Positions 10,384 to 63,890 of a stretch of 64,000 bases of DNA are shown here, piece by piece; position 1 is the stretch's first letter, and the number at the start of each line of letters is the position of its first letter. The notes under the pieces are model-generated. The model saw nothing but the letters and a program-made list of their open reading frames with translations. It was not told where the DNA came from and did no database searches. The stretch lies in the IMG/VR virus record IMGVR_UViG_3300045988_182214. One strand, given 5' to 3'. This stretch comes from a virus. The translations under genes were made by a program, and so were the position numbers.

Positions 10384-10441
10384 TTTATCGCAATCAAGCA
10401 AGAAAGCTCCACCCGACTAATGTCGTTTGTGAGTAGTTCAT
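10384..10441 (+). repeat. dispersed structured element, copy 2 (in the 5' UTR of the SPFH gene)
   Basis: TTTATCGCAATCAAGCAAGAAAGCTCCACCCGACTAATGTCGTTTGTGAGTAGTTCAT. Confidence 0.6.
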
Positions 10442-10474
10442 GCTTATTTTTACTAAAAGAAAGGAATAAAATTT

Positions 10475-21214: not shown

Positions 21215-22366
21215 ATGAGAGAAAACAAAATTTTAGAAAATGTAACAGTATTAAACAAGGTTGACAACAGACAGTATTTAATTACATCTGTTACCGATGG
21301 CGTAGGAACGGCTTGTCTTTTAGAAAATGGTGAAGTAAACGAAGATATATCTGTCATGATATCATCATCTAACGCAATTGCTTTTAGACTTATCAGCAAT
21401 CCTAATATTCCAGATATTCCAGATGGATATTCAGTAGAAGACGGAATTTTACTTAAGGATGGTGTTGCTGCTACACAGCAGGGTTCACTGGTAATTAAGA
21501 GTATCGTTACATCTGTTCCAGGTAAGCTTTTATTAGCTGTATTGCCTAGAGAAAACACAACAGAACATGATGATTATATTGATTTATTTGCTTATAAGCC
21601 GGATGAGGATAAGTTTAAGAAACTTATTCCAGTTTCAATTCCAATGCCGGAAGTTATAGGTGTATGTGACAAATATGTGATACTAAAGACTTCCTATACA
21701 CACTTTGAAACAAAGAAGGATTGTAATGGAAAAGATATTTTCGCTGAATATTTTGATAATGCTGAAATTATCGTTTATGATGGTGCAAAGAATTATATTT
21801 CAAGTTATTTAATGCTTGACGCACCAATAAATAATGTCATTACTGTAAGAAATTCAATGAATGTACCTACATGGGTCATTGAATATACAGAGCAGGTATG
21901 TAATAATAATTATTATAATCCTAATTGTGATTGTGGTTATGACTGCGAAAATGATTGTGGAGATTATGATGAATGCAATAATTGTGACTATCATTTAGAT
22001 ACAATTACTAATACTAAGGAATTAATCGAGATGGATCATATTAAAGCAGAAATGATTGCTCTTAATGGTGGTACATTAATGAGGCTCAATAGCATTAATA
22101 TCCCTTCACATATTAAATCTGTTTCAATTGGTTGGAATAGTGCTGATTTTATCAGACTTGAAGACAGAATTATGATTGGAGAGTATGTTGATAAAATCAT
22201 TACTGATTCAAAGATAATGTCTGCAGTTGAAGGATATGATTGGATTGTCGATACAAGTAAGGAAGATAATGTAACAAGAATTGCTCTTGCAAACGACAAT
22301 ATGGAAATCAAGTATATTGTTATTACTGAAACATCAGATAGAGGAGACGTTGTTAAGGTAAAATAA
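21215..22366 (+). CDS. hypothetical protein, tandem paralog B with Cys-rich insert
   Basis: Homologous ends with 20033..21082; insert CNNNYYNPNCDCGYDCENDCGDYDECNNCDYH. Confidence 0.6.
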   Translation: MRENKILENVTVLNKVDNRQYLITSVTDGVGTACLLENGEVNEDISVMISSSNAIAFRLISNPNIPDIPDGYSVEDGILLKDGVAATQQGSLVIKSIVTSVPGKLLLAVLPRENTTEHDDYIDLFAYKPDEDKFKKLIPVSIPMPEVIGVCDKYVILKTSYTHFETKKDCNGKDIFAEYFDNAEIIVYDGAKNYISSYLMLDAPINNVITVRNSMNVPTWVIEYTEQVCNNNYYNPNCDCGYDCENDCGDYDECNNCDYHLDTITNTKELIEMDHIKAEMIALNGGTLMRLNSINIPSHIKSVSIGWNSADFIRLEDRIMIGEYVDKIITDSKIMSAVEGYDWIVDTSKEDNVTRIALANDNMEIKYIVITETSDRGDVVKVK

Positions 22367-22477: not shown

Positions 22478-24271
22478 ATGTCAATGTTTGAACATGTAAA
22501 AATTGGAGAATTAACAAAAAAGGTTATTGAGTCAGGAGTTACAGTGTGTGAACATAACCATCCAGGAGGCTCTTTGTTTGATGCCGTAGATGAACCTAAA
22601 AGTTATTTAGATGCTGCATTTAATGCAGGATATACTAAATTTGCTGTTACGGACCATGCATCATTTTCAGCAATGCAAACATGTATTGATTACGCTAAGA
22701 AAATAAGTACTGAGGAACATCCATTTAATATCATTTATGGCGTAGAGGCTTATATTGAAGTGCCACCATTTAAGATAAATGAACAGATTGGCCATATGAT
22801 TATGTTAGCCACTTCAGAAAGAGGCAAGCATATTATTGATAAGTTAAATTCTAAGGCTTCTGAAAAAAGAATGGGAAAGCCTGTTATTACAATATCAGAT
22901 TTAAAGAAATATAACTTTAACGGTGATATAATAGCAACTTCAGCTTGCGTTTCGGGTGCACCAGCTCTGCAATTATTATCAGATGATGTTTTGGATAAAA
23001 TGATTAACAGAGAAAGAAAAGCACAGCAGCATACTACTGAAAAAGACGAGCTAGTTATACATGATTGTATAAGTCCTGATGATAAAGAATATCTTTCAGC
23101 TAAAGATGAATTTGAAAGGGTATCGGCAGATTTAGATGAATTGATTAATATTCGTGATTCCAAGGAACTTAAATCAGAAAGAACACAGATTTCAAGAAAA
23201 TTAAGAGATGCAAGAAAGTGTTTAAATGATGATGATCCAGAGCTTATTAAACTGATTAACGAATATGAGGAGATAAATAATAAAATTCTGGAAGCTAAAG
23301 ATAAAATTCCTAATGTCAGAAAATTAGTTAATGCTAAGAAAGCCGAGTTGAAGGATATAAGTCTTAAGGTAGAGGAATACATTAATCATGAAAATAAGAT
23401 ACAGCATTATGAATCATTAAAGAAAAGCCCAATAGAATTAATGTCTGAAGCAGAAAAGACAATGCTTTTTTATCAGGAAATTTTTGGAGCAGGTAATTAT
23501 TACATTGAAGTTCAGAATCATGGGCTTGAAATGGAAAGCAGAACATATCCTGTGTTAGCTCAGTTAGCAAGGAAGCATAATATTCCATTAGTTGCTGCTA
23601 ATGATGCACATATGGCAGATAATTCTGATAGAAGTATTGATATGCGTAATGTAGCTAAATTTTTAAGATTTATTAAGATAAGTGAGTCGGAATCAGATAA
23701 AGAGTTATATGTAAAGACACCTTATGAACTTGCTCAGGCCTTATCAGCTATATTAACAGATGATCAGGTTGCAGAAGCACTCAATAACTTAAATGTAATT
23801 GGAAAAAGATGTGCTTATATTCCAGAAAAATCTAATCATTATCCAGTATTTGATAAGAATAAGGATTCAAACGAATTATTAAGATCTGAAGCAATTAAGG
23901 GAATTAATTGGAGATATCCTAACGGAAAAGGATGGGATGAAGAACATCAGAAACGAATGGAATACGAACTTAATATTATCATTCAGATGGGCTTTGCCGA
24001 TTATCATTTAATTGTAAAGGACTTCCTGGAATATGGAAGAATTTGTGGATTAGTACCTATGGATAAACTATCAGAAGTACCTTTAACAATTGAAGGTGCA
24101 AAAGAGTATGTTAAGGCTCACAATTATAATACCGGAATTGGAATAGGCATTGGAAGAGGTTCAGGTGCCGGTTCATTGGTTACATATTTACTTGGTATTA
24201 CCGGAATTGATCCATTTAAGTATAATCTGATTTTTGAACGATTCTTAAATCCAGAAAGAGTAAGTATGCCT
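22478..24271 (+). CDS. dnaE: DNA polymerase III alpha subunit (DnaE-type), exon 1 (PHP domain to ERVSMP)
   Basis: PHP motifs [10 protein letters not shown] and AVTDHASFS; ...[40 protein letters not shown] aligns with E. coli DnaE up to the residue just before the catalytic PDFDVDF. The continuous ORF then runs into intron sequence and stops at 24319. Confidence 0.85.
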
Positions 24272-24696
24272 AAATATATTGGGCGTTCAGCGTGGACTCT
24301 AACTCAGAGGTGTGCTTAATATTTTATTATTAAGTGCTAACGGTAGAAGTTGAATAAGACTGCTATATAAAGTGTCACAACAGGATATATAGCTTAACCC
24401 ATAGACGAAGCAGCTTCGTAAGAGAACCTACGGTCCTAATATTTTTATATAAAAGATATTGAAGGATAGCAGGCGATACCGTGCTAAGATTATAAATAAT
24501 ATTATATAAATAAAAAATTGTTCGTATATAATATTATTTATTTTAAAGTGTAACGACTATCCTTTTTAAGGAGTACAACTGAGAATGGTTACAGTTGGAA
24601 GTGCGTTGAAATATAATATTAATAATATTATATTGAGATATAGTCTAATCCCACTTATACAAGTGTTAAAGTACTACGAAAGTAGGGGTATATTTG
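24272..24696 (+). ncRNA. putative group I self-splicing intron in dnaE (no ORF)
   Basis: Splitting at 24271/24697 restores ...ERVSMP|DIDSDLALG..., colinear with E. coli ...ERVSMPDFDVDF. The upstream exon ends in U and the intron ends in G; GAGATATAGTCT (S-element-like) pairs with an upstream AGACTG for a P7; the intron looks GC-richer and more structured than its surroundings. Confidence 0.6.
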
Positions 24697-26461: not shown

Positions 26462-26520
26462 TATTATCGCAATTAAGCAAAAAACCCCAACCGACAATAG
26501 CCGGTTGTGGGTAGTTCAAT
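26462..26520 (+). repeat. dispersed structured element, copy 3 (intercistronic, upstream of the NTase gene)
   Basis: TATTATCGCAATTAAGCAAAAAACCCCAACCGACAATAGCCGGTTGTGGGTAGTTCAAT; hairpin CAACCGAC/GCCGGTTG. Confidence 0.6.
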
Positions 26521-31123: not shown

Positions 31124-32809
31124 ATGAATAAAACAGGTATTGAAGATTTAATAGCAATGAATGCTTTATATCGTCCTGGTCCTGAAAAGTTTATACCTGA
31201 TTTCATAGAAGGTAAAAAGGATGCATCTAAGATTAAATATTTATGTCCTCAATTAGAGCCAATTTTGTCAACTACTTATGGACAGATAGTTTATCAGGAA
31301 CAGGTAATGCAGATTGTTCGTGATTTAGCAGGATATACATGGGGGCGTTCTGATTTAGTCCGTAGAGCTATGTCAAAAAAACATCAGGATGAAATTGATG
31401 CTGAAAGACACACTTTTGTATATGGCAATGCTGATACTAAAAAAGAAAATGAAGCATTAGTACCAGGTTGTATTTCAAATGGAATACCAGAAGAAATTGC
31501 TCATAAAATCTGGGATGCGATGGTTGATTTTGCTAAGTATGCTTTTAATAAGTCACATGCCTCTGCTTATGCTGTTACATCATATTGGACTGCTTTTCTT
31601 AAGTATTATTATCCGGCTTATTATCTTACAAATGTAATAAATCATACTGATAAGATTGATGAAGTCGCTGATGATATTAGTGATGCTCTTGATTTTGGAG
31701 TAAAGGTATTGCCTCCGGACATTAATGCTTCAAATTTACATTGTGATGTTGTAGATGGAAATATTTTGTATGGTCTGAGTAATATTAAGAATGTTGGAGC
31801 AGAAGCAGCTAAAATTATTGAAGATAGAAATGTTAATGGAGAATATTCTGATATTAAGGATTTTATCAAACGAACAAATATTAATGCAGAAGCATTAAGT
31901 TCCTTAATTAAAGCAGGTGCTTTTGATTGCCTTGGTTATACAAGAACAATGATATCATTAGATATGATTTGTATGAAAGAAATTCAGGATACAATCAAGA
32001 AAATCAGAGAGAAGAGTAAGTTTATTGAAAACGCAAGTAAAGTTATTGAATTTGTGGAAGATTATATTGATCTTGATGAGTTTAAGGAAAAAATTTCAGA
32101 AGAAAATATTTCCTTTCAAGTTACTTCAAAAAAGATGCCAACTAAGGATTCCATAATTAAACGTATCAATTCAGCTAAGACAGTTATAGAAAGCTTAGAA
32201 GATGATCTTGAAAATATAGATATTGATTATGTAGAAGATGATTTAGGTCAGATTCTAAATGATGAAAAAGAAGTGTTAGGTGTTTATATTACAGGGCATC
32301 CAATTGATGAGTATAATATTTATACAGATCCCATTTCTGATATTTCAACAGAAGTTAATGATGTATCTGGTATAATTAAAAATCTTGTTATAAGAAAGGA
32401 CAGAAATGGATACGAATGGGTAACTTTTGAGGTAGAAGATAAAACAGGTTCTATTAATGGTGTATGTTTTTCTAAGGATTATGCAAATATTAGAGACTTA
32501 CTTGTTAATGATGCTAAATTATGTTTATCAGGGAAAATTCAAGTAGATGATTTTAGATCTTCAGATGACGAAACTGTATATCAGATTATTGTTAAATCTG
32601 TTAAACCTTTAAAGAAAAATAAGTCTTCATATAGATTTATTTGTACTGTTTCCGAAGTAAACGATGTTCTTGATTCTATTAATGAATATCTGGTGGACGT
32701 TGATGGAGATTATTTATATTGGCTTGATTCAACAACTGGAATTGAACATTTATGTAAGAAATTCATTAACCCTGATATGTCAGCCCCTTCAATAGTACGC
32801 AAATGCTAA
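31124..32809 (+). CDS. dnaE: DNA polymerase III alpha subunit, C-terminal cistron (fingers/thumb/HhH/OB)
   Basis: MNKTGIEDLIAMNALYRPGP...YGQIVYQEQVMQIVRDLAGYTWGRSDLVRRAMSKK...FNKSHASAYAVTSYWTAFLKYYYPAYY is colinear with E. coli DnaE from ...[15 protein letters not shown] onward; its own SD AAAGGAG and ATG. Confidence 0.9.
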   Translation: MNKTGIEDLIAMNALYRPGPEKFIPDFIEGKKDASKIKYLCPQLEPILSTTYGQIVYQEQVMQIVRDLAGYTWGRSDLVRRAMSKKHQDEIDAERHTFVYGNADTKKENEALVPGCISNGIPEEIAHKIWDAMVDFAKYAFNKSHASAYAVTSYWTAFLKYYYPAYYLTNVINHTDKIDEVADDISDALDFGVKVLPPDINASNLHCDVVDGNILYGLSNIKNVGAEAAKIIEDRNVNGEYSDIKDFIKRTNINAEALSSLIKAGAFDCLGYTRTMISLDMICMKEIQDTIKKIREKSKFIENASKVIEFVEDYIDLDEFKEKISEENISFQVTSKKMPTKDSIIKRINSAKTVIESLEDDLENIDIDYVEDDLGQILNDEKEVLGVYITGHPIDEYNIYTDPISDISTEVNDVSGIIKNLVIRKDRNGYEWVTFEVEDKTGSINGVCFSKDYANIRDLLVNDAKLCLSGKIQVDDFRSSDDETVYQIIVKSVKPLKKNKSSYRFICTVSEVNDVLDSINEYLVDVDGDYLYWLDSTTGIEHLCKKFINPDMSAPSIVRKC

Positions 32810-34244: not shown

Positions 34245-35273
34245 ATGGCAGATAAGAATTTATTATTAAATAAAAAAAACAATAAAGATGAATATGTTGA
34301 TGAATTATTTGATACAAATAAACCAATAGAAAACATAAATATTTTATCAGAGGATAATTATACCGATATTTTAAATGATAAAGAGATTTTAAATGAAAAA
34401 GAGAAACTATTATTAGAAAATAATATAACTTATTATATTAAATCATTCGCTGATTATCCGGTTTTATCCAAAGATGAAACTCTTAAATTATTTGAAGAGA
34501 TAAAAAAACATCCTAAAAAGAAAAAAGAAATAACCGAAAAATTGATTTTATCTAATATGCGTTTAGTCATCAGTATTGCTAAAGCCGTTACAGCTAAAAC
34601 GCAAAGTTTTGAAATGGATGATTTATGTCAGGCCGGTATTTTCGGATTATACAGAGCTATACAAATGTTTGATTATAAATTAGGATATGCATTTTCAACT
34701 TATGCAACTCATTGGATTAGACAGAGTATATATAGAGAATTAGCCAATTATGATTTATTAGTTAGATTCCCTGTACATGTAAGAGAACAGGATTCTTTTG
34801 TTAAGACTACATTTGTGGATTTAACTAATAAACTTCAAAGAAAACCTACAATTGATGAATTATATGATGTAGTAAAACAAAGATATCCTCTTTTAACTAA
34901 AGAAATGCTTGTACATATTCAGAGCTTTAATGAATTGGTTTCATTAGATGCACCTATTCAAAGTGATGAAGGCCATGACGATTCGTGTTTGGCTGATTAT
35001 ATAGAAGCTCCTGAACCTAAAGTTGAAGATACGATTATTCAAAAAGAAATGAATGAACTGCTTTGGAAAGAAGTTGAAGATTGTCTCACTCCTAGAGAAT
35101 TATATGTAATTAAGAGTAGAATGGGATATGGTTCAAAGGTTAAAACTTTAAAAGATATAGGTACTGAATGGAATGTTTCCAGAGAACGAATCAGACAAAT
35201 TGAATCAAAAGCAATAAAAAAGATTAGAGTTCGTTTCAGACGGAAAGGATATAGTATACAATCTTTTATGTAA
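34245..35273 (+). CDS. sigma-70 family RNA polymerase sigma factor (phage-encoded)
   Basis: Regions 2.1-2.4 ILSNMRLVISIAKA...GIFGLYRAIQMFDYKLGYAFSTYATHWIRQSIYR; region 4 HTH TLKDIGTEWNVSRERIRQIESKAIKKIR. Confidence 0.9.
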   Translation: MADKNLLLNKKNNKDEYVDELFDTNKPIENINILSEDNYTDILNDKEILNEKEKLLLENNITYYIKSFADYPVLSKDETLKLFEEIKKHPKKKKEITEKLILSNMRLVISIAKAVTAKTQSFEMDDLCQAGIFGLYRAIQMFDYKLGYAFSTYATHWIRQSIYRELANYDLLVRFPVHVREQDSFVKTTFVDLTNKLQRKPTIDELYDVVKQRYPLLTKEMLVHIQSFNELVSLDAPIQSDEGHDDSCLADYIEAPEPKVEDTIIQKEMNELLWKEVEDCLTPRELYVIKSRMGYGSKVKTLKDIGTEWNVSRERIRQIESKAIKKIRVRFRRKGYSIQSFM

Positions 35274-38925: not shown

Positions 38926-39603
38926 ATGAAATTTAAGAAAAAGAAATCATTTTGGAAAGAATTTTTTAATGAGTGTATAGGAGTAATATTAGTCGGGGCA
39001 ATTATAATATATATTGCCTTATCTGCCATTATAGGAAATCTGATATTGCCATACATAAATAATGGAAAAGAAATAAATCCGTATATAGAAGATGTAAGCA
39101 GTAAGTTTACAATATTTTTAATAAAAACAATCATAGGTGCTATATATCTATTTGGCGCAATTTTCATGCTGTTAATTGCTTTTGCTATTATAAGCATAAT
39201 TGTAATAGCAATAGTAACCGGAATAACACATATAACAGCCGTAAAACGATATACATATTTGCCTCTTACAGTAGATGAAGTAAGAGAAGCTATAAATGCA
39301 GGATTATTTAAAGATACTCCTGAAAGCTATACAGATTATCTTACAAAACAGATGAAGTATTTTGATGGCAGTATAACCTTTTCAGTTGATGATATGAAAA
39401 TAATAACAAAAACAATAAAAGAAATATGGGATGAATCATTTAAACTTAATAAAGATTATCTTATCAGGAATAAAATAGAAAGTTATGATTATCTCCCATT
39501 TGAATTTAGGGATGACAGAGATGATTTATTTTGCCAGTTAAAGAAAGGCAAAACAGTAACTTTTGATATGGATGAAGGGTCTTTGATTCAGACTATTAAA
39601 TAA
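38926..39603 (+). CDS. membrane protein
   Basis: SD AAGGAG upstream; three TM helices. Confidence 0.5.
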   Translation: MKFKKKKSFWKEFFNECIGVILVGAIIIYIALSAIIGNLILPYINNGKEINPYIEDVSSKFTIFLIKTIIGAIYLFGAIFMLLIAFAIISIIVIAIVTGITHITAVKRYTYLPLTVDEVREAINAGLFKDTPESYTDYLTKQMKYFDGSITFSVDDMKIITKTIKEIWDESFKLNKDYLIRNKIESYDYLPFEFRDDRDDLFCQLKKGKTVTFDMDEGSLIQTIK

Positions 39604-39619
39604 AAGAGAGAGGCATGGA

Positions 39620-39982: not shown

Positions 39983-40001
39983 TAGGGATAAATTTTGGAT
40001 T

Positions 40002-40091
40002 GACAGATATGATTTATTTTGCCAGTTAGAGAGAAACAAAACAGTTGCTTTTGATATTGATGGTTGTTCTTTAATTCAAAATGTCAAATAA
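40002..40091 (+). pseudogene. 3'-terminal remnant of a paralog of 38926..39603
   Basis: DRYDLFCQLERNKTVAFDIDGCSLIQNVK* versus the C-terminus DRDDLFCQLKKGKTVTFDMDEGSLIQTIK* of 38926..39603; no start codon. Confidence 0.55.
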
Positions 40092-40187
40092 AGAAAAAGG
40101 AAAAATTTTGATACATTTGATGATACTGATATAAAAAATCAAAAAGACAAAATTAATAAAGAATCATTAATAGTAGGAGAATAAGGT

Positions 40188-42086: not shown

Positions 42087-42328
42087 GAATGGAATATCAA
42101 AATAACTACATACACATTACCGGATGGAACAAAACTTCAAACAAGTAATGAAACTTCTTTTAATTCAGGAAGCAGTTTTATATTTAATGATAATAACAAT
42201 AATGAGTATCGTTTTTATAATTTTATGGAAAACCAAGAGGGTTTTTATGTAATTCCCAGCAAATTATATCAAGCTATAAAAGAGCAGATTAATTAATGAA
42301 AATCAAAAAATAAGAAAGGAAACATAAA

Positions 42329-45516: not shown

Positions 45517-45575
45517 AATTATCGAAGAATAGCACGAAAACTCCATTCAACAAAAATCGGTTGCGAATAGTTCAT
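45517..45575 (+). repeat. dispersed structured element, copy 4 (promoter - element - terminator; candidate sRNA)
   Basis: AATTATCGAAGAATAGCACGAAAACTCCATTCAACAAAAATCGGTTGCGAATAGTTCAT. Confidence 0.6.
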
Positions 45576-45623
45576 AGAAACTGAAATGTAAAATATATAC
45601 TTAACAATAATTTAAGAATTGTC

Positions 45624-46942: not shown

Positions 46943-47029
46943 TTAGTCATGCAAGATGAGCAGCTACGAAGTAAATGTAAGAGAAGAATAAACAAATAAG
47001 AATTATTGGCTTCATTAGGAGGTAAAGTA

Positions 47030-48356: not shown

Positions 48357-48608
48357 ATGAAGACACTTAATACAATAAATGAACTAATAGAAAAAGCAGA
48401 ATCAGAAAATGAAAGACGTATATTAGATACAGTAAAAAATACTTTAATAGGAGAAGTTAAAGAAGCCTCTAATGAGATGTCTGCTTGCAGTTGGTGGACT
48501 GGGGCTACATATGATGATGACGAATGTTTGAATAATAATAATAAAGAAGTAGTTATATCTGTAGACAAGGCTGTTGATATCGTTGAGAGTATTATCGCAA
48601 TCAAGTAA
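48357..48608 (+). CDS. small acidic protein, paralog of 28090..28359
   Basis: See 28090; its 3' end overlaps dispersed element copy 5. Confidence 0.5.
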   Translation: MKTLNTINELIEKAESENERRILDTVKNTLIGEVKEASNEMSACSWWTGATYDDDECLNNNNKEVVISVDKAVDIVESIIAIK

Positions 48609-48650
48609 AAAAACTCCATTCAACATTAGTTGATTGTGAGATGAATTGCA
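48590..48650 (+). repeat. dispersed structured element, copy 5
   Basis: TATTATCGCAATCAAGTAAAAAAACTCCATTCAACATTAGTTGATTGTGAGATGAATTGCA; the hairpin keeps pairing through a compensatory CAAC/GTTG change. Confidence 0.55.
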
Positions 48651-48779
48651 CAATAATCTAATTTTAAAGTATTTCCAAATATAAAAGGATAGGATCAAGG
48701 GATAGTAGCATCCAATATGCTGTAACGATTGCGTAATGTAATTATTACAGGGTTACTTACATGTTGAAAAAATATGTAA

Positions 48780-48822
48780 CATAGAAACTTCATCTGACTA
48801 ATGTCGGTTGTGAGTAGTTCAT
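48780..48822 (+). repeat. dispersed structured element, copy 6 (3' core only)
   Basis: CATAGAAACTTCATCTGACTAATGTCGGTTGTGAGTAGTTCAT. Confidence 0.55.
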
Positions 48823-48933
48823 AACCGCAGCAAAGATATATGGAGAAGGAGGATACCAGGATAAAGAAATTTTAATTAACTGTAGTCAGATTGTATCTGT
48901 AGAAAAATATTTGTAAAAGATTGCAGCGACAAT

Positions 48934-48972
48934 ATCTCATCCAAAATTAATTGGGTGAGATATTTTTATTTT
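48934..48972 (+). terminator. rho-independent terminator
   Basis: ATCTCATCC aaaattaatt GGGTGAGAT followed by ATTTTTATTTT. Confidence 0.6.
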
Positions 48973-49376: not shown

Positions 49377-49892
49377 ATGGCACGATATAAAATGATAATT
49401 AATACAGATAAATATAAATGTAAAAGATGCAGCAAAAAGAATTGGGAGCCAGGAACATTGAATGATTATATGATCGCAATAAATGGAATCACAAAGACTC
49501 TTTATAATATGCGTGAAGTTATGTGGCAACTTAAATTGTTCCAAGGTTGTTCATTTTTATCATCAGAATGGAGTGAAGATAACCCAAAAGAAAATTTTGG
49601 CTTATCTGACAGATATATTAAATTTCTAAAGAAAAATACCATAAAATATCATGACAGATTATGTAATTTGGACAGACAACATTATTTATCAGGTTATGGA
49701 TTTATGCAAGGTTATTTCGATATTGACGAAATAATGGGAAAATTAAAGGATGAAAGAACTGTAAAAGTACCTTTCAAATGGCTATATGATATCAGACAGT
49801 ATGATAAGTGTATGGATGGCTGTTATATGAAAATGATAGATATTCTGCGACATTATATGATAAGAATGGAAATCCACAGCGTCCATATCTGA
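49377..49892 (+). CDS. hypothetical protein
   Basis: SD TAGGAGA upstream. Confidence 0.5.
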   Translation: MARYKMIINTDKYKCKRCSKKNWEPGTLNDYMIAINGITKTLYNMREVMWQLKLFQGCSFLSSEWSEDNPKENFGLSDRYIKFLKKNTIKYHDRLCNLDRQHYLSGYGFMQGYFDIDEIMGKLKDERTVKVPFKWLYDIRQYDKCMDGCYMKMIDILRHYMIRMEIHSVHI

Positions 49893-49975
49893 ATAGTGAA
49901 AACTTAGAGGAACTTATTGGACAGATTTTGGAAACCGAATGAAACGAATTTCTTAATGTAAAAGGAGAAAATATA

Positions 49976-50173
49976 ATGAAGCGTGATTTAGTAGATGAAT
50001 TGTATAAAATTGCATATAAGCGATATAGAGAAAAATATCCAAATAAAGATTTTGCATCTATTCCCAATTTTTTAGATTCACTTTGGTTTAGCATTGAAGG
50101 TGAACTTAATAGAAATGGATATAATGCGGCAAAGAAATATGTCGAAGAAGCAGAGTTAATTGAATTAAAGTAA
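49976..50173 (+). CDS. small protein
   Basis: SD AAAGGAG upstream. Confidence 0.4.
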   Translation: MKRDLVDELYKIAYKRYREKYPNKDFASIPNFLDSLWFSIEGELNRNGYNAAKKYVEEAELIELK

Positions 50174-50183
50174 ATGAATTGGC

Positions 50184-50223
50184 GATTTACTGGTATGCAT
50201 GAGTAGACAAGAGTTTCTTTAGA
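50184..50223 (+). repeat. linker repeat GATTTACTGGTATGCATGAGTAGACAAGAGTTTCTTTAGA, copy 1
   Basis: 39/40 identical to 50628..50667; contains the remnant start ATGAGTAGACAAGAGTTTCTTTAG (MSRQEFL*), homologous to the 5' end of the gene at 52777. Confidence 0.6.
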
Positions 50224-50239
50224 AGATTGGAGGAAAGAT

Positions 50240-50626
50240 ATGACCTATTTAGAATTAGCAAGAAAGATAAAGAATGCATATAAGGAATTAAAGCAAAATG
50301 AAGTATATAAACTTTTCAATGTCATATGGAATAATGACCTTGGAGAGTCAGAAATTACAGTTGAAAATGATGCTGGATTTAGAGCAATTATTATTGGTAA
50401 TACAAGCGGTATAAAAAAATCAAGAGGTTACATGTATTTGTTTTATACCAATAATGACACAGAATCATTTCCGACTATTAAAGAAATAGAACACAGATTA
50501 AGAGTAGTTGCAAATCAAGAAATTTTAACAGATAAAAATGTGAATTATTTTGATTGGGAACAGTATGGTTCTTTAGAAGAACAGAGAAAATATTTTTCAG
50601 AAATAATTTTAAATACAACAAAATGA
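50240..50626 (+). CDS. hypothetical protein
   Basis: SD GGAGGAA upstream. Confidence 0.45.
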   Translation: MTYLELARKIKNAYKELKQNEVYKLFNVIWNNDLGESEITVENDAGFRAIIIGNTSGIKKSRGYMYLFYTNNDTESFPTIKEIEHRLRVVANQEILTDKNVNYFDWEQYGSLEEQRKYFSEIILNTTK

Positions 50627-50627
50627 T

Positions 50628-50667
50628 GATTTACTGGTATGAATGAGTAGACAAGAGTTTCTTTAGA
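50628..50667 (+). repeat. linker repeat, copy 2
   Basis: GATTTACTGGTATGAATGAGTAGACAAGAGTTTCTTTAGA. Confidence 0.6.
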
Positions 50668-50687
50668 TTAAAAGGAGAGTGTAAACT

Positions 50688-50885
50688 ATGGCATATATAT
50701 TAGGAAGATTGATTTCATGGAATATAAAATTTGAAAAAGTTGATAGTAAATGCGTAAGAGTATATGGAAACTTTGATGGTTTTTCTGTAGTAAGAGAATC
50801 AGAACAGGAAAACTATATCGAAGTGGATGGAAGGCTTATTGACTATGAGAATTTTGAAGATTGGCTATATGTTATTAAGCAATGA
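50688..50885 (+). CDS. small protein
   Basis: SD AAAGGAG upstream. Confidence 0.4.
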   Translation: MAYILGRLISWNIKFEKVDSKCVRVYGNFDGFSVVRESEQENYIEVDGRLIDYENFEDWLYVIKQ

Positions 50886-50942
50886 AACGATGATTGACTA
50901 AGAAAGTGAAAAAATAATATAGTAAGAAAAATTAACAATAAA

Positions 50943-51215
50943 TTGTATAAAGTTAATACATATTTTTCTGCACACATTATTGAAGTAGATGATAATTATG
51001 ATGAAGAAGTACAGAAACTAAGAAAAGAAATCCAGTTTGACAGTATTGGATACAAATTGAACTTACTTGTATATCTTGCCACATTAACGGTACAAGGATA
51101 TGCAATTTTAAGCGTAACAGAATTTAATATTGATGGAAGTAAGCCTAGAGTTGCTTATGCAAGTAATAAAGATTTCAAGAAAATTGTTAAATATTATTTT
51201 GGAAAGAAAGCATAG
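50943..51215 (+). CDS. hypothetical protein (weak start)
   Basis: TTG start with no SD; ORF only. Confidence 0.3.
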   Translation: MYKVNTYFSAHIIEVDDNYDEEVQKLRKEIQFDSIGYKLNLLVYLATLTVQGYAILSVTEFNIDGSKPRVAYASNKDFKKIVKYYFGKKA

Positions 51216-51248
51216 GAATCAGAAATTTACTATTAGGAAGGATATCAA

Positions 51249-51301
51249 AGGAAATTAGAAAGTAATTGGTTTAGAAAAACAGATGTAACTGGCAGTTTCA
51301 A
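51249..51301 (+). repeat. second linker repeat family, copy 1
   Basis: GGATATCAAAGGAAATTAGAAAGTAATTGGTTTAGAAAAACAGATGTAACTGG; encodes the remnant GYQRKLESNWFRKTDVTG. Confidence 0.55.
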
Positions 51302-51316
51302 TAGGAGGAAAAATAA

Positions 51317-51583
51317 ATGAAATTAAAAAAGGATAGAAACGATAAAACGATAACGGATAATATAAAACTTTCAAAGACTGCTGAAGAACTATTAGAAGCC
51401 ATGAAAACTGAGTACTTACGAAGGATAGAATCAGCACATGTGCTGTCAGTAAAAAATGCGTGGTATTATTCGTATTTAGGTTCATTAGATTTTGCTAGAC
51501 AAATGGGACTTATTTCCGAGGAACATCGACAAGAGTTATGTCGGGAATTTAGTAAAGCTATTACGAATATAATAACGAAATAA
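51317..51583 (+). CDS. small protein
   Basis: SD AGGAGG upstream. Confidence 0.4.
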   Translation: MKLKKDRNDKTITDNIKLSKTAEELLEAMKTEYLRRIESAHVLSVKNAWYYSYLGSLDFARQMGLISEEHRQELCREFSKAITNIITK

Positions 51584-51629
51584 TGAAACGATGTAAATGC
51601 TCGAAATGCAAGACATCTTACGGTTGCAT

Positions 51630-51682
51630 GGATACCAAAAGAAATTAGAAAGTAATTGGTTTGGAAAAATAGATGTAACTGG
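51630..51682 (+). repeat. second linker repeat family, copy 2
   Basis: GGATACCAAAAGAAATTAGAAAGTAATTGGTTTGGAAAAATAGATGTAACTGG; encodes the remnant GYQKKLESNWFGKIDVTG with no start codon. Confidence 0.55.
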
Positions 51683-51836
51683 TAATTGGAAATATAATCG
51701 CATAGAATAACAAAAACTTAAAAAATTGCGAAGCAAATTTTAGATAATTAAATAATAAGGAATAAATAAGGGATTGATTAATTTAATCCCTTATTTTTTA
51801 TTTGGATACACTTCGAAGCTTTGGTCTAGGATATTT

Positions 51837-51859
51837 ACTTATGCTTTGTACTCAGTATA
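51837..51859 (+). repeat. bracket box L, copy B
   Basis: ACTTATGCTTTGTACTCAGTATA. Confidence 0.5.
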
Positions 51860-51993
51860 TAACTTCAACTGCATAGCTTGATTACATGTTCATATTAAAG
51901 CCCGGCCTTTCATAAAAACGAGAAATATAATCCACCATATGTATGATAGGAAATATAATATTTTTTTTGACACAAAAAATTGGTTTATCCCAG

Positions 51994-52023
51994 CAAACCA
52001 TAAATTTGTAACTTAAAACTTCA
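51994..52023 (+). repeat. bracket box R, copy B
   Basis: CAAACCATAAATTTGTAACTTAAAACTTCA. Confidence 0.5.
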
Positions 52024-52065
52024 GAGTTTTATCTATATTGTTTGATATTATAACAAAATAAATGT

Positions 52066-52079
52066 TTTTTCTGTCATAT
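52066..52079 (+). promoter_or_regulatory. promoter-like motif TTTTTCTGTCATAT
   Basis: 35 nt upstream of ATG 52114. Confidence 0.55.
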
Positions 52080-52113
52080 ATAAATTAAATAATTTTTTAA
52101 AGGAGGCCATTAA

Positions 52114-52203
52114 ATGGGAACAAAGAAAAATAATAATGTAAAAGAATTAATAGAAAAACTCAGAAAAACGGCTTTATTAAAGGAAATTTTAAAAATAGAA
52201 TAA
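52114..52203 (+). CDS. tiny peptide (29 aa)
   Basis: Motif plus SD AAAGGAGG plus ATG; MGTKKNNNVKELIEKLRKTALLKEILKIE. Confidence 0.3.
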   Translation: MGTKKNNNVKELIEKLRKTALLKEILKIE

Positions 52204-52296
52204 TTTTATACATATAAAATATTCAACCAAAATTCTTGTTGAATTTTCAGATGGAACATCTAAATGATATTAAAAGTAAAGAGAGGACAAAACTAT

Positions 52297-52761
52297 ATGA
52301 GTTACAGAACAAATGTAAATGGTACACAGATTTTTGGCGATAACGAATGGTATGGCGAATGGGGCAAATACCTTATAAGTAAAGGTATAAAAATCAGTGA
52401 TGAAGGTTTATATGAGGGCGAACTTGATGATTTTATGGAAGCCTTAGAAGTCATTGAAAAGATTACAATGAATATTGAAGCTAAAAGACGAGAGCGTAAG
52501 GAAGCCGGAGGAAAATTTTTCAGCCAGAGTATTTTTGATAATGGAGACATTTACGATAGTCTGGTTAATGATGACGAACATTATGAAAGCCTGTTTGATA
52601 AGGAAATTGAGATTATTAAACATGGGTATATGTTTCTTCCTATACAGTTCTTTAAAGCGTGTGAAGATATGCTTGAATATACAGGCATTGATTTAAAGGG
52701 CAGCCGCACTTATACATATAAGCTTAAGGATGGATGCAAGATAAAAGTAACAGCAGGCTGA
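52297..52761 (+). CDS. hypothetical protein
   Basis: SD AGAGAGGA upstream of ATG 52297 (in frame with ORF-track start 52264). Confidence 0.5.
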   Translation: MSYRTNVNGTQIFGDNEWYGEWGKYLISKGIKISDEGLYEGELDDFMEALEVIEKITMNIEAKRRERKEAGGKFFSQSIFDNGDIYDSLVNDDEHYESLFDKEIEIIKHGYMFLPIQFFKACEDMLEYTGIDLKGSRTYTYKLKDGCKIKVTAG

Positions 52762-52776
52762 TAAGAAAGGGTATGT

Positions 52777-52968
52777 ATGAGTAAACAAGAGTTTCAAGGG
52801 AAAGGCAAATATATGAAAGTAAAAGAATTTTTAGAAAATTTCACAGGAGATAATCATATTAAAATTTATGATATGCATAGCTTTGATACGCATAGATATA
52901 ATAATGCAAATGAAGCTATAAGACAATTTGGTTATTATACAGATGGAAAATTATTGATAATGTCTTAA
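52777..52968 (+). CDS. small protein (MSKQEFQG...); intact member of the family whose 5' remnants form the linker repeats
   Basis: SD AAGAAAGGG upstream; 5' end ATGAGTAAACAAGAGTTTC. Confidence 0.45.
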   Translation: MSKQEFQGKGKYMKVKEFLENFTGDNHIKIYDMHSFDTHRYNNANEAIRQFGYYTDGKLLIMS

Positions 52969-53001
52969 AAATAACTATTAGAACACAATTCTAAAAATGA
53001 G

Positions 53002-53190
53002 GTGAATTATATGCACATAACAAAGGAAATGAATATGCATAATTGTCAATTATGTAGAAAAGAATGGCTTGGAAGATGTTTCGGAAAGAAATATGGGAAA
53101 GATGTATCTGTTGATAATGAACCATGTAAGTGTTACGAATTTGGCGGTTCAGAAGAGAGACTAAAAGAAATTGAGAATAATATGAAATGA
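53002..53190 (+). CDS. small Cys-containing protein
   Basis: SD GAGGTGA upstream. Confidence 0.4.
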   Translation: MNYMHITKEMNMHNCQLCRKEWLGRCFGKKYGKDVSVDNEPCKCYEFGGSEERLKEIENNMK

Positions 53191-53218
53191 GGATTTACAA
53201 GGAAGCGAGGTATACAGT

Positions 53219-53524
53219 ATGGATGAATTATTGAAACAAATCCAAGAATATATAAAAGCGTATAAAGAACCGCCATACGGAAAAGAAGTAGAAGGAACAA
53301 CGGAAATTCTTGAAAAATCTTCTCAAACTTTGATAAAGACAGCACATAGAGTAGTGCTTTTGGAAAATCAATTTATTGATGGAATGAAGGTAAAGTATCA
53401 AGGTGATGATGAAATGGACGGTATTGAATGTCCTATATGTAAATATGAGGTCGCAACAAATGATGATTATGCAGAAATGCGACCAAAACATTGTCCAGAA
53501 TGTGGCACAAAACTTATTTATTAG
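53219..53524 (+). CDS. Zn-ribbon protein (CPICK ... CPECG)
   Basis: SD GAGGT upstream. Confidence 0.45.
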   Translation: MDELLKQIQEYIKAYKEPPYGKEVEGTTEILEKSSQTLIKTAHRVVLLENQFIDGMKVKYQGDDEMDGIECPICKYEVATNDDYAEMRPKHCPECGTKLIY

Positions 53525-53602
53525 AATCCAATGAAAAGGTGACTTACTTAGAAAAGGAATTAGATAATGAACAAAAAGCTTTAAAAGAAATGAGGGATAG
53601 AA

Positions 53603-53794
53603 ATGGTACTTGTAAGAATAAAAGATAAGAGATACCACATCGGCTACAATATAAAATTTTTTAAAACTGACACTATAACAGATGAAGTTATACAGTTTAT
53701 AAAAAGTCATCCAAAAGCTTATTGGGTAGAATGCGGTGAAAAAATTTATCGCAGTAGAGAAGAATTGAAAGAATTGTTAAATCCAAGGAAATAA
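53603..53794 (+). CDS. small protein
   Basis: SD GAGGGA upstream. Confidence 0.4.
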   Translation: MVLVRIKDKRYHIGYNIKFFKTDTITDEVIQFIKSHPKAYWVECGEKIYRSREELKELLNPRK

Positions 53795-53795
53795 T

Positions 53796-53827
53796 GATTT
53801 ACAGGTGCATGAGTAAACAGAGTTTCA
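53796..53827 (+). repeat. linker repeat, degenerate copy 3
   Basis: GATTTACAGGTGCATGAGTAAACAGAGTTTCAG (MSKQSFS* remnant). Confidence 0.45.
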
Positions 53828-53875
53828 GTTGAATCTTTAACTATAAGAAAAGGTTAAAACAGAAAGGAAAATATT

Positions 53876-54106
53876 ATGCTTAATATAGTTATTATCAATT
53901 GTGATGATAAGTATGTAGAATATGAATGGACTTCAAAAGAAGCATTTGCACAGGATATGCAAAGTGATAATGAAAACATCCCAATGCTCGATGATGCTTT
54001 GGCAGAAGTAAATACACAAGACGATAATTTACTGTTATGGTGGAGAAACACAGATGGATTAACAGTAGATGATTTGTTAGAAGAATGTAAACAGGAATTA
54101 AATTAG
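53876..54106 (+). CDS. small acidic protein
   Basis: SD GAAAGGAA upstream. Confidence 0.4.
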   Translation: MLNIVIINCDDKYVEYEWTSKEAFAQDMQSDNENIPMLDDALAEVNTQDDNLLLWWRNTDGLTVDDLLEECKQELN

Positions 54107-54300: not shown

Positions 54301-54426
54301 TGATGAAGAAGATGATGAATCTTTATGAATTTAATTATAAAGTCTGCTTTATCAAATATGAAAGCTGTTAATAAGAATTTTGAACGAGATAATTTTAGAT
54401 AGAAATAAAAAGGGAAAGTAAAAAAT

Positions 54427-54741
54427 ATGGATTTAATTGATAGAAATTATTTATTAAAAAATATAATAAGTTGGGGAAAATTAGTAAAAGGCAATAATGC
54501 AAAGAAATTACTTACAGAAGTAATCAATTATATTCAAATACAAGATACTATTGTTGATATGCAGAAGCTTATAGATGGAGTGAATTTTCAAAAAATAGGT
54601 TTGGAATATTTAGATGATAAAGACATTAAAGATGCAACTATTTATAATGGAGCAATAGATGATGGTATAAATGAAATTAAAAACGCTATGAATCCTAATT
54701 ATATAAAAGCTTTTGATTGGGATAAAACAGAAGGATTTTAG
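54427..54741 (+). CDS. hypothetical protein
   Basis: SD AAAGGGAAAG upstream. Confidence 0.45.
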   Translation: MDLIDRNYLLKNIISWGKLVKGNNAKKLLTEVINYIQIQDTIVDMQKLIDGVNFQKIGLEYLDDKDIKDATIYNGAIDDGINEIKNAMNPNYIKAFDWDKTEGF

Positions 54742-54763
54742 ATAGGAATAAAAAGGTGAATTT

Positions 54764-54955
54764 ATGGAAAGTGAAATTAACATTAAACTTAAATACTGCC
54801 CTTTTTGTGGTGGACATGCAACAATGATATATGATAATCAGGAAGGATATTATATATATTGTGACGACTGTTGTATTATGACTGGCAATAGTTTTGATAA
54901 AGAAAAGATAATTAATACATGGAATAATAGAGTAGTAATTAACGAAAGGGAATAA
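54764..54955 (+). CDS. Lar-like restriction alleviation family protein (tentative)
   Basis: KYCPFCGGHATMIY...YCDDCC...TWNNR matches the CPFCGG ... WNRR architecture of the Lar family. Confidence 0.4.
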   Translation: MESEINIKLKYCPFCGGHATMIYDNQEGYYIYCDDCCIMTGNSFDKEKIINTWNNRVVINERE

Positions 54956-56276: not shown

Positions 56277-56621
56277 AGTATCTCTAAAATTCATCGAAAA
56301 GGTTATAGTTGGCAGATGAAATTTGGTACTCTTATCAAAGATAGGTTTAAAAATGATGAAGTAAATGCTATTTTAGATTATCTTTCAGAATCAGAGATAA
56401 AAGATAAATTAGCAATAGAAACATTACAGGTAATTTTTATAGAAATTGGAGATAAAAATGGTTTTAATCAATAAATATAAATATACAAAATATGCCGAAA
56501 GGGGTGAGTATCATTGCGATATAAGCAAATTCCTTGATGAACAAGCAGGTATTAAAAAAGAAGATAGATGGTTAAGTCCTATTTTTGGTTAAAAAAATTG
56601 AAAGAAAAAGGAGAAAAGTAC

Positions 56622-57185
56622 ATGAAAGTTTATGATACAGGATTAATATGTGGACGATTTCAGACATTTCATAAAGGACATGAACGCCTTGTAGATACAG
56701 GATTATTGTTGTGTGACCGGTTATTGATATTGATAGGTTCTGCACAGGAATGTGGTACAGAGCGAAATCCTTTTAATATTAATACAAGGACTAAGATTCT
56801 TAAAGAGATATATGGCGATAGACCGGAAGTGATGATTTATGGTTTAGCTGATTTAACAGATGAAAATGATATCCGCCCGGAATGGGGCAGATACTTACTT
56901 AATAATACTGACAGATACATTCATAAGAATCCTGAAATAATGATTTATGGAAATGATGAATCCCGAAGCAATTGGTTTGATAAGAAAGACCTTGCTAATA
57001 CAGCAGAACTTATTATGAACCGCTATGATATGCCTATCTCTGCTACAATGGTCAGAACCGCTATGGCTAAAGATGATAGGAAGCTCTGGATGTCTTATGT
57101 AAATCCCAGATTGCATAAAATGTATGATGAGCTAAGAGAAGAACTTATGACAGTTGAATTCTATAAGAATCTGGCTAAAGAATAA
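56622..57185 (+). CDS. nicotinamide-nucleotide adenylyltransferase (NadM-type NMNAT)
   Basis: GRFQTFHKGH matches the NadM/NadR signature GRFQPFHxGH of the (H/T)xGH nucleotidyltransferases; ISATMVR matches ISSTxIR; SD AAAGGAGAA upstream. Confidence 0.75.
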   Translation: MKVYDTGLICGRFQTFHKGHERLVDTGLLLCDRLLILIGSAQECGTERNPFNINTRTKILKEIYGDRPEVMIYGLADLTDENDIRPEWGRYLLNNTDRYIHKNPEIMIYGNDESRSNWFDKKDLANTAELIMNRYDMPISATMVRTAMAKDDRKLWMSYVNPRLHKMYDELREELMTVEFYKNLAKE

Positions 57186-59018: not shown

Positions 59019-60299
59019 ATGGCAGAGAAATTTACATGGAACTTTAGCAGCATTGCCCCAGAATGTTTATACAGTGAATACAAGAAAGTAAGAATAGGTA
59101 TTGAAGGAGTATATGCTTATGGAACAGGATATCTGGTTGATAAAACTGCATTTGAAAGAGAGTTATATCCAGAACTTGCAATAGCCGGATATCTGGTTGA
59201 TTTTTCAAGAACTTATGGTGTCTGTGATGAATTAAGGCTTGTAAGTAAAGACAGTTTAAGAAATAATATATGTCTTAATCCCGAAGCATTATTTAATGTA
59301 TATATGCATCCGGCAGAATTTACAGGATATATGAAAGATAGTGATGTTGAAGAAATCACTGAAATTTTAAAGAAGAACAGCTTTGTAAAAAATGTAGAAG
59401 TTACATATAAAAAGCCAGTACTTAATCTTACGAACAATGAATATAAAAAGGTCATAAGAGATAATTTCACAAATATCTGTAAATATATAGCACATTTAAA
59501 GGAATTAAAATATTCAGATATAGATGCAGCATTTGAATTTGCAAGAAATTACGGCAACATAACACTGGAAGATCCTAAGACTGTTCTTAGCAGTGATACT
59601 GTAGAAGTAAGATATATAACAGAATTCTTGGATAATTTAAAAAGCTTAGAAATAGATATAAGAGATCTTAATAAGCTATCTAAAGAAAAAAGTATATCAG
59701 CTAAAAAGGATAATGAAAAGTCAAAGCTTAAGATTCCAGATATCATAAAGGATTTATTTTTAGATTCTAAAATTATAATTAGGATAAATAATGAACGTGA
59801 GCATCAGATATTTTTGGAGAATTTTAAAAACGATATGAAATTAATATCTTTATCGTATAAGTCTGAATATACTTATTATTTAGCAGACAATGGTGGTAAC
59901 AATCTCACAAGATATTCAACAGCAATATTGGAGCCTGATTTAGATGATAAATTAGAGCTTAATTTAGAAGAAATATACGAAATTTCTCAAATTAAAAAAA
60001 TACCGGATGTTATTATAAATATGTTTATAAATAAAGAGATTGCTATTCAGGTTAATAGTAAACTGGAACAGTATATGTTATTTTTGACATTATATGGTTC
60101 AGGTAAATTTACAATCATTCTTAAAGATTATCCTTTTTATCACAAAAAGCATCCATTTTATTGTATTAATACGGTGAATAAAGTTGATGATAAACAGTAT
60201 ATGGAAGATATTGCTGAAATAGATAACATAAAGCAGTTTGTAGAATTTAATGATTGGGATAATATTCAGAGAATAACTGAAGACAAACAATATATATAA
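59019..60299 (+). CDS. hypothetical protein (426 aa)
   Basis: SD AAAGGAG upstream. Confidence 0.55.
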   Translation: MAEKFTWNFSSIAPECLYSEYKKVRIGIEGVYAYGTGYLVDKTAFERELYPELAIAGYLVDFSRTYGVCDELRLVSKDSLRNNICLNPEALFNVYMHPAEFTGYMKDSDVEEITEILKKNSFVKNVEVTYKKPVLNLTNNEYKKVIRDNFTNICKYIAHLKELKYSDIDAAFEFARNYGNITLEDPKTVLSSDTVEVRYITEFLDNLKSLEIDIRDLNKLSKEKSISAKKDNEKSKLKIPDIIKDLFLDSKIIIRINNEREHQIFLENFKNDMKLISLSYKSEYTYYLADNGGNNLTRYSTAILEPDLDDKLELNLEEIYEISQIKKIPDVIINMFINKEIAIQVNSKLEQYMLFLTLYGSGKFTIILKDYPFYHKKHPFYCINTVNKVDDKQYMEDIAEIDNIKQFVEFNDWDNIQRITEDKQYI

Positions 60300-63024: not shown

Positions 63025-63375
63025 ATGAAAAAGTTCATTTACAACAAAATAGTAACAGATTATAGCAAAAAATCAAAAGAAGAACTTATACAGGAGATCA
63101 TGGCACTAGAAAGAATTGAATGCTCTGATAGATGTTTCGCTAATCAGTGCGAAGCAGGTAATGCTATAGCAAATATCAATAGATTGTTTGCAGCATTAAA
63201 CGATACGCCAGAAATATCTAATTATGTTCGCAGTATAATAGTTGATGCAGAAATCAGTTGGGAATATATTACAAGTGGAATTAGTACAATTAATGATGAT
63301 TCAAGATGCGAAAATGCATTAATAGAATTTAAAAACAGAGTTGCTGAAGCTACTGATGATGACGATTGTATTTAA
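63025..63375 (+). CDS. hypothetical protein
   Basis: SD AAAGGAG upstream. Confidence 0.5.
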   Translation: MKKFIYNKIVTDYSKKSKEELIQEIMALERIECSDRCFANQCEAGNAIANINRLFAALNDTPEISNYVRSIIVDAEISWEYITSGISTINDDSRCENALIEFKNRVAEATDDDDCI

Positions 63376-63407
63376 ACTTAACAAGGTATTAAAAAGGAGA
63401 TAAGTAT

Positions 63408-63711: not shown

Positions 63712-63852
63712 AAAAACGATACGGCAGAAAGTAATTGGAACTACGTTAAAAATGGAATTGCTGAAATTAACGATAATTCAAGATGCAGTAAGGCGTTAAA
63801 AAATTTTAAAAACAGAGTAACAAAAGTATCTGATGATAATGATAGTATTTGA
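63712..63852 (+). pseudogene. remnant of a paralog of 63025..63375 (C-terminal part only, no start codon)
   Basis: ...SNWNYVKNGIAEINDNSRCSKALKNFKNRVTKVSDDNDSI* versus ...ISWEYITSGISTINDDSRCENALIEFKNRVAEATDDDDCI*. Confidence 0.5.
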
Positions 63853-63890
63853 AATTCGCATTTCAACAGAAAGGAAAAGGAGGATAAATT

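Follow-up and report, generated by a model that had tools for sequence, protein, structure and literature searches.

Are the short repeats between the small genes of a phage genome places where genes are exchanged, or are they translation signals or the remains of genes? This question is raised by a 64,000-nt stretch of viral DNA, IMG/VR record IMGVR_UViG_3300045988_182214 (hereafter, the window). A first-pass annotation made from the sequence and its open reading frames (ORFs) had described two families of short repeats, here called A and B, among the small genes between 49.9 and 53.9 kb, and had proposed that they are gene boundaries prone to recombination. We found that both families are genuine and occur far above chance expectation. 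Our preferred reading, to which we assign a probability of roughly 0.7, is that A would be a portable homology patch by which promoterless gene cassettes are shuffled inside the operons of what is probably a jumbo phage of the human gut.

Repeat A at gene junctions with varying partners

The family A repeat, GATTTACTGGTATG[C/A]ATGAGTAGACAAGAGTTTC(TTTAGA), is 34–40 nt long and occurs at 50184 and 50628 with one mismatch between the copies, compared with 0 occurrences expected from shuffled sequences. Its 19-nt core, ATGAGTARACAAGAGTTTC, recurs at 52777 (3 matches, versus 0.07 expected), and a degenerate copy at 53796–53827 contains the core with a 1-nt deletion (nhmmer E=2e-11). The two near-identical repeats, their one-base difference, and the degenerate third site were thus confirmed as first annotated. 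A profile hidden Markov model of eleven copies detected only four sites in the window, all on the + strand, and a search with half-profiles recovered two additional 5′ fragments, at 50880–50899 and 53181–53201. In total, the window contains four copies of A and three fragments, all inside 50.1–53.9 kb.

We compared the window with its close relatives, comprising four IMG/VR contigs and twenty contigs from other assemblies. The relatives are strongly mosaic. Blocks that they have in common with the window are 95–100% identical, and gene content differs exactly around the repeats, which are themselves retained; this is the pattern that the first-pass annotation had suggested looking for. Nine of the 13 distinct breakpoints between 49.9 and 54.3 kb fall in A- or B-derived sequence, which makes up 12% of that stretch (P=2.5e-6).

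We then tallied the junctions formed at A in 58 related loci, 35 of which were added by scanning metagenomes for the A core. There are 30 types of A junction in this set, combining 17 upstream contexts with 19 downstream genes. The conserved gene g1 (154 amino acids, 52297–52761) is followed, via the same truncated A, by five different genes, and g69 (56 amino acids) is preceded, via A, by three. The g9 gene was seen in three contexts, each time with A on both sides; it has other neighbors in the relatives L008 and L080 and is absent from L007 and L022. On a larger scale, two alternative five-gene blocks, for which A4 forms the right-hand boundary, replace each other in backbones that are at least 99% identical. 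Partial elements also coincide with breakpoints, as homology to a translocated copy of gene 53002–53190 in L007 stops at the 5′ fragment at 53181–53201. The same arrangement was seen in many independent metagenome assemblies and is therefore not an assembly artefact.

The position of the crossover within A is not fixed. Switches between sequence types occur at the 5′ edge, inside the core, at the boundary of core and leader, and inside the leader, and in one genome an A2-type patch lies within A1, which indicates gene conversion. The variable switch points argue for homology-driven exchange with gene conversion and against a site-specific enzyme. They bear directly on another explanation, in which A is the site of a dedicated site-specific recombinase, forming an array like the attC sites of integrons, or a small mobile element with target duplication. 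Such an explanation would account for the layout, in which small promoterless cassettes on one strand alternate with a repeated element of 50–70 nt, and mobile elements do land in this region in relatives (L033 has a TnpB gene, and L107 and L109 have a tyrosine-recombinase set). However, there is no single fixed cut site, and neither A nor B contains an inverted repeat or imperfect palindrome, nor do the A copies contain a hairpin. No integrase or transposase was found among the ~40 window proteins scanned, a set that does not include every ORF of the window or any protein from the remaining genome. Unrelated short repeats mark the edges of other cassettes in the region. We therefore give this explanation almost no credence.

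Because the same A sequence lies between many unrelated genes, it would act as a portable patch of homology. In our preferred reading, non-allelic copies of A would recombine, by homologous or short-homology recombination, either within one genome or between co-infecting relatives. Recombination between two A copies would swap, insert, delete, or relocate promoterless gene cassettes, with each moved cassette remaining joined to its ribosome-binding leader. Every exchange would also copy the linker along, which would maintain the A family and leave half-elements as scars. The window encodes a UvsX-like recombinase, a RecJ-like exonuclease, a helicase, and a DNA polymerase in two distant genes, and for UvsX-type recombination in T4, less than 50 bp of homology is enough (discussed in PMC2839356). 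We infer that the phage's own UvsX-type system carries out the exchange and that A has no extra regulatory role; the direction assigned to individual events is inferred in the same way.

Anatomy of A and its possible role as a signal

When the distinct copies are aligned, A is an inter-cistronic element of 55–75 nt with three parts: an upstream stop region, the 19-nt core, and a Shine-Dalgarno leader. The 5′ half, (A)ATGAAAYRATGA-TTTAC[T/A][G/A]GTATGC, overlaps the upstream stop codon and often also the final codons of that gene, which is why several unrelated upstream proteins end in MKQ or MKR. The core has the consensus ATGAGTA[G/A]ACAAGAGTTTC. It is followed by a leader of 10–16 nt that ends in GGAGG, with the start codon 6–9 nt beyond. 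Some copies of A are complete, others lack the 5′ half (A3 and the g18 copies), and others are half-fragments. We also considered AATGAAACGATGA as an independent motif but rejected it, as it is not enriched when searched alone (8 matches across the window, versus 5.7 expected); it is relevant only as the 5′ part of A.

The A core begins with an ATG, and the first-pass annotation had taken the one at 52777 as a true gene start (MSKQEF...) and the other repeats as 5′ remnants of that gene, decapitated by illegitimate recombination. The ORF from ATG 52777 is indeed in frame with the downstream gene, and the gene table's caller picked this ATG in the identical relative L015. True decapitated remnants also exist nearby, namely the tail of g12 and, in L007, the tail of g5. 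However, the assignment of 52777 as the start is doubtful, as ATG 52813 has its own Shine-Dalgarno sequence (GGGAAAGG, 7 nt, ATG) and is at least as good a candidate. In full A copies, no Shine-Dalgarno sequence precedes the core ATG, and in most copies the reading frame that it opens stops after 3–7 codons. In L009, the stop-containing form follows g1 and is itself followed by a different gene; in L074-type elements the real start and the A ATG are in different frames; and in the g18 copies the upstream gene ends within the core, its stop codon overlapping the A ATG. Moreover, the 5′ half of A encodes the MKQ or MKR tails of upstream genes and is not part of the downstream gene. We thus consider it improbable that the repeats are remnants of a gene start, and the notion that they carry decapitated starts did not hold up.

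A different possibility is that A is mainly a functional RNA or translation signal, such as a leader, an enhancer, an operator for a translational repressor, or an RNase processing site for early genes, which is maintained by selection, with recombination being incidental, as for the promoter-early stem-loop (PeSL) cassettes of T4-type phages. The first-pass annotation had held that a conserved distance to start codons would speak for a signal and against recombination. This is partly what we saw, with the core lying 17–28 nt before the start codon in most copies, and 10–16 nt before GGAGG, a spacing that follows from the inclusion of the Shine-Dalgarno leader in A. A is thus both a carrier of translation signals and a recombination junction. 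Also in favor of a signal, A1 contains a 10-nt perfect anti-16S Shine-Dalgarno sequence, as read from the DNA, and the A core is kept in a lineage whose conserved neighboring protein is 88% identical.

Other observations fit a signal less well. Shuffled controls fold as well as the A copies do (z between -1 and +1), the copies show no covariation, and the fold of their alignment has 4 pairs only, at -0.16 kcal/mol. Searches against Rfam 15 gave no matches at E≤1 in 47–57 kb and none at gathering score across the whole window. Unlike the promoter-like motif of this phage, which is found window-wide, A is limited to ~4 kb of the 64 kb. The 1-nt core deletion of A4 and several core substitutions are each carried by many genomes, half-elements survive, and no matches to A were found in more distant relatives, either those with g1 ~60% identical or those with the 130-amino-acid gene 62% identical. 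As for transcription signals, none of the promoter-like or terminator-like sites listed in the window lies inside A1–A4, B1, or B2, and neither A nor B contains the phage's recurrent promoter-like motif, TTTCTGTCATAT. The only listed promoter-like site nearby, at 50894–50923, begins in the half-fragment at 50880. Taken as its main function, a signal role for A seems to us possible but doubtful.

It is also conceivable, though very improbable in our judgment, that the A array is a dedicated cassette-exchange system whose core, AGTAAACAAGAGTTTC, is bound by a putative phage factor, either a recombination-targeting protein or a translational operator protein. An operator protein could then co-regulate interchangeable ORFans for host takeover or anti-defence, and the phage would keep an integrase-free, integron-like library of promoterless genes.

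Family B, other indels, and the surrounding operons

Family B consists of two 58-nt copies that are 90% identical. The repeat pair noted in the first-pass annotation is therefore real, but its first copy starts at 51240 rather than 51249. The proposal that B encodes a start-less peptide is correct for B1 and incorrect for B2, which has a start codon of its own. Because B1 lacks a start and the L008-type copy lacks the head of the 37-amino-acid ORF, a conserved B protein is unlikely. Together with its flank, B2 folds somewhat more stably than shuffled sequences (z = -2), using flank sequence that is missing beside B1.

The two B copies enclose g5, and the B1–g5–B2 arrangement is present in twenty or more genomes. 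Genomes of the L008 type (at least 6 independent assemblies) have no g5 and carry a single B with all four B1-specific SNPs (single-nucleotide polymorphisms), followed by the downstream sequence of B2; the switch falls within the final 12 nt of the repeat. In L007-type genomes, only B2 is present, preceded by a decapitated 3′ remnant of g5. The interval between B1 and g5 is a remnant of A, and the diverged relative L048 has a full A before its g5 homolog; this identifies B as a direct duplication that surrounds a cassette led by A. The pair most likely arose when the A-led g5 cassette and downstream B-bearing sequence were joined beside a resident copy of B, and both one-B and two-B alleles circulate at present. 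With A linking many gene pairs and B flanking a cassette that is present or absent, the original view of the repeats as recombination-prone gene boundaries was supported in part.

Several indels in the region involve neither family. A ~640-bp deletion between 10-nt repeats, at 49825 in the window and also found in L021 and L028, removes 2–3 genes that most relatives have, extends gene 49377 into foreign sequence, and leaves a 3′ remnant of the lost gene g12 that has no start. Several relatives without gene 54427–54741 retain one copy of the 22-nt repeat that flanks it in the window. Repeat-bounded cassette indels were noted at 46983–47026 (44 nt), 54392–54413/54735–54756 (22 nt), 56605–56626 (11–22 nt), and 59709–59720 (12 nt), and some indel events cut within genes.

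The direct repeats that bound the other indels, 10–44 nt long, are unrelated to A and B, and most of them include either a stop region or a start with its ribosome-binding site. Several observations weigh against our preferred reading of A. When gene adjacencies were compared across 23 genomes, giving 175 distinct adjacencies in ~20 kb, junction types without A were about as variable as those with A (125/162 versus 11/13). Plasticity therefore does not depend on A, and A may not increase the rate of exchange; given that this promiscuity control showed no difference between A and non-A junctions, we dropped the claim that A raises plasticity. The description of the region as built with the two repeat families likewise went too far. 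In addition, a boundary between shared and unshared sequence records an ancestral event, and whole-block swaps could instead have crossed over in the conserved genes on either side. In the beta haplotype, g1 is not followed by A. The constant distance of the core from the start codon is compatible with a selected function at the translational or RNA level. Finally, the direction of change at B can be read either way, with the double form arising by insertion or the single form by repeat-mediated deletion.

The window has a GC content of 29%, and nearly all of its long ORFs are on the + strand. Positions 42297–62761 are 100% identical to L015, a human-gut metagenome contig. The relatives are found on contigs of 14–688 kb from many independent gut metagenomes, and the window is therefore a piece of a widespread, uncultured, and probably jumbo phage of the human gut. 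A blastn search of 50,697 phage records with the region gave only one 226-bp match, and a tblastn search with the polymerase gave nothing above 40% identity; neither search yielded a cultured relative. The split DNA polymerase is encoded by genes 22478–24319 and 31124–32809, ~7 kb apart, which match the N- and C-terminal parts of one PHROG profile. A sigma-70-family gene lies at 34245–35273.

The promoter-like motif TTTCTGTCATAT has 24 sites on the + strand (27 matches on both strands, versus 1.6 expected) and is probably the main promoter class of this phage. In the form TTTTTCTGTCATAT, it precedes the AGGAG ribosome sites of many genes by ~25–35 nt. Its only sites between 45.7 and 58.9 kb are at 48970 and 52068, and there are terminator-like hairpins at 48931–48964 and 51764–51796; all copies of A and B are therefore contained in two polycistronic units made up of small ORFan genes. 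Pfam scans of ~30 small proteins gave nothing useful except one Lar match and weak zinc-ribbon matches, with no match for the cassette genes tested, and a PHROGs scan of ten small proteins gave just two weak matches of unknown function. The Lar match (restriction-alleviation family PF14354, E=7e-12), to a 63-amino-acid protein at 54764–54955, is the sole functional hint of host-takeover or anti-defence genes in the cassette region.

Table 1. Positions of the repeats, cassette genes, and associated motifs in the window.
Feature	Position	Strand	Remarks
10-nt repeat ATATGAAAAT and g12 remnant	49825–49942	+	repeat at 49825–49834, then decapitated 3′ remnant of g12 (49835–49942)
A1	50172–50239	+	full module between genes 49976–50173 and 50240–50626; core 50199–50217; leader TTTAGAAGATTGGAGGAAAGAT
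g9	50240–50626	+	128-amino-acid ORFan cassette gene; flanked by A1 and A2
A2	50616–50687	+	between g9 and gene 50688–50885; core 50643–50661
A 5′-half fragment AATGAAACGATGATTGACTA	50880–50899	+	at stop of gene 50688–50885; site of L022 breakpoint
B1	51240–51297	+	directly upstream of g5 cassette; start-less, TAG two codons upstream
A 3′ remnant AGTTTCAATAGGAGG; remnant and ribosome-binding site together, AGTTTCAATAGGAGGAAAAATAA	51293–51316	+	remnant 51293–51309; leads gene 51317
g5	51317–51583	+	88-amino-acid ORFan cassette gene; between B1 and B2
B2	51630–51687	+	within 37-amino-acid ORF 51597–51710 (own ATG); upstream of terminator 51764–51796
A3	52770–52812	+	without 5′ half; core 52777–52795; after conserved g1 (52297–52761)
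A 5′-half fragment ATGAAATGAGGATTTACAAGG	53181–53201	+	after gene 53002–53190
A4	53784–53875	+	1-nt core deletion; long leader to gene 53876–54106
Gene 54427–54741 with 22-nt direct repeats	54392–54756	+	between repeats 54392–54413 and 54735–54756
Promoter-like motif, example sites	4729, 8467, 12231, 21166, 36506, 45658, 48970, 52068, 58972, 62978	+	
Hairpin family of ~62 nt, copies	8309–8370, 10384–10445, 26482–26519, 45518–45579, 48591–48652, 48785–48822		

Other repeats and insertions were seen in the window and its relatives. A second intergenic repeat family, of ~62 nt, forms a conserved hairpin of 11 pairs, 3 of them with compensatory changes, and has no Rfam match. Its copies at 48.6–48.8 kb flank a 212-bp segment that is deleted in some relatives and replaced by 2.3 kb in others. 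Repeats between neighboring segments, with 71–80% identity over 100–155 nt, pair 20033–21082 with 21215–22366, 39503–39604 with 39991–40092, and 63247–63398 with 63724–63875; the first pair consists of adjacent ORFs, which suggests a tandem gene duplication. In L033, an IS605-family OrfB/TnpB (Cas12f-like) gene at 5798–6904, corresponding to ~51.8–52.0 kb of the window, lies on the opposite strand between the operon terminator and the next promoter. In the distant relatives L107 and L109 (g1 ~59% identical, contigs of 62–309 kb), two tyrosine-recombinase genes and a DUF6262 gene at 1–2468 replace several small genes upstream of the g1 homolog, compared with 223–2531 of L106.

Comparison with integrons, linkers, and PeSL cassettes

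How does A relate to systems that are already known? Like integron attC arrays, the region contains promoterless, co-oriented cassettes separated by a repeated element of at least 50–70 nt, with content that varies between close relatives. In contrast to integrons, no integrase was found (~40 window proteins), there is no attC-type palindrome, and the crossover has no fixed point, having been observed at four positions or more. Exchange at A looks homology-driven instead.

The boundary sequences of lambdoid phages are one example of the linkers of modular phage evolution. The linker idea of Susskind and Botstein, part of the modular theory of phage evolution (discussed in PMC2839356), supposes that short homologies at the boundaries of genes or modules let otherwise unrelated segments exchange, and A resembles such linkers in this respect. 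The unit exchanged is different, however: here, in a single phage species complex, it is one small gene of an operon, rather than a functional module passing between different phages.

A further likeness is to the PeSL cassettes of T4-type phages (Arbiol et al. 2010, PMC2839356; Comeau et al. 2014, PMC4122927), with which the first-pass annotation had compared the repeats. In both systems, short conserved intergenic repeats are concentrated in a hyperplastic, ORFan-rich region and flank genes at which close relatives differ by insertion, deletion, or replacement, with a relative that lacks the gene keeping a single copy of the repeat. Crossovers occur at variable points around the Shine-Dalgarno sequence and ATG in both, those of T4-type PeSLs mapping between the Shine-Dalgarno sequence, the ATG, and the -10 box (PMC2839356), and both phages have a T4-like UvsX recombinase. 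PeSLs are defined, however, by a strong sigma-70-like early promoter, with -35 and -10 boxes and an AT-rich upstream element, and by a stem-loop terminator (PMC2839356). A and B have no sigma-70-like promoter, no copy of the phage's own promoter-like motif, and no stem-loop terminator; they lie inside operons, such that the cassettes are promoterless and not transcriptionally insulated, and A reaches into the last codons of the upstream gene. The comparison with PeSLs thus holds as a functional analogy for gene shuffling and fails in the strict sense. Elements much nearer to the true PeSL architecture were seen in L106, a distant relative without A, which has four composites of ~99 nt (2–103, 2006–2104, 3680–3778, and 6302–6387), each of which combines a GC-rich hairpin with a T-run and a promoter-like segment rich in AT.

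The 30 junction types in 58 loci are a ready data set for examining the minimal length of homology, the location of crossovers, and the turnover of ORFan cassettes, and A1 and A2 around g9 and B1 and B2 around g5 are concrete targets for PCR or long-read sequencing. The A and B repeats reveal no new kind of mechanism. We conclude that A is a promoterless, intra-operon variant of linker- or PeSL-mediated modular shuffling, a phenomenon already known. Such shuffling has been documented experimentally mainly in T4-type coliphages, and A extends it to an abundant, uncultured, and probably jumbo phage of the human gut, in which the linker brings just a stop region and a leader for ribosome binding and has neither promoter nor terminator.

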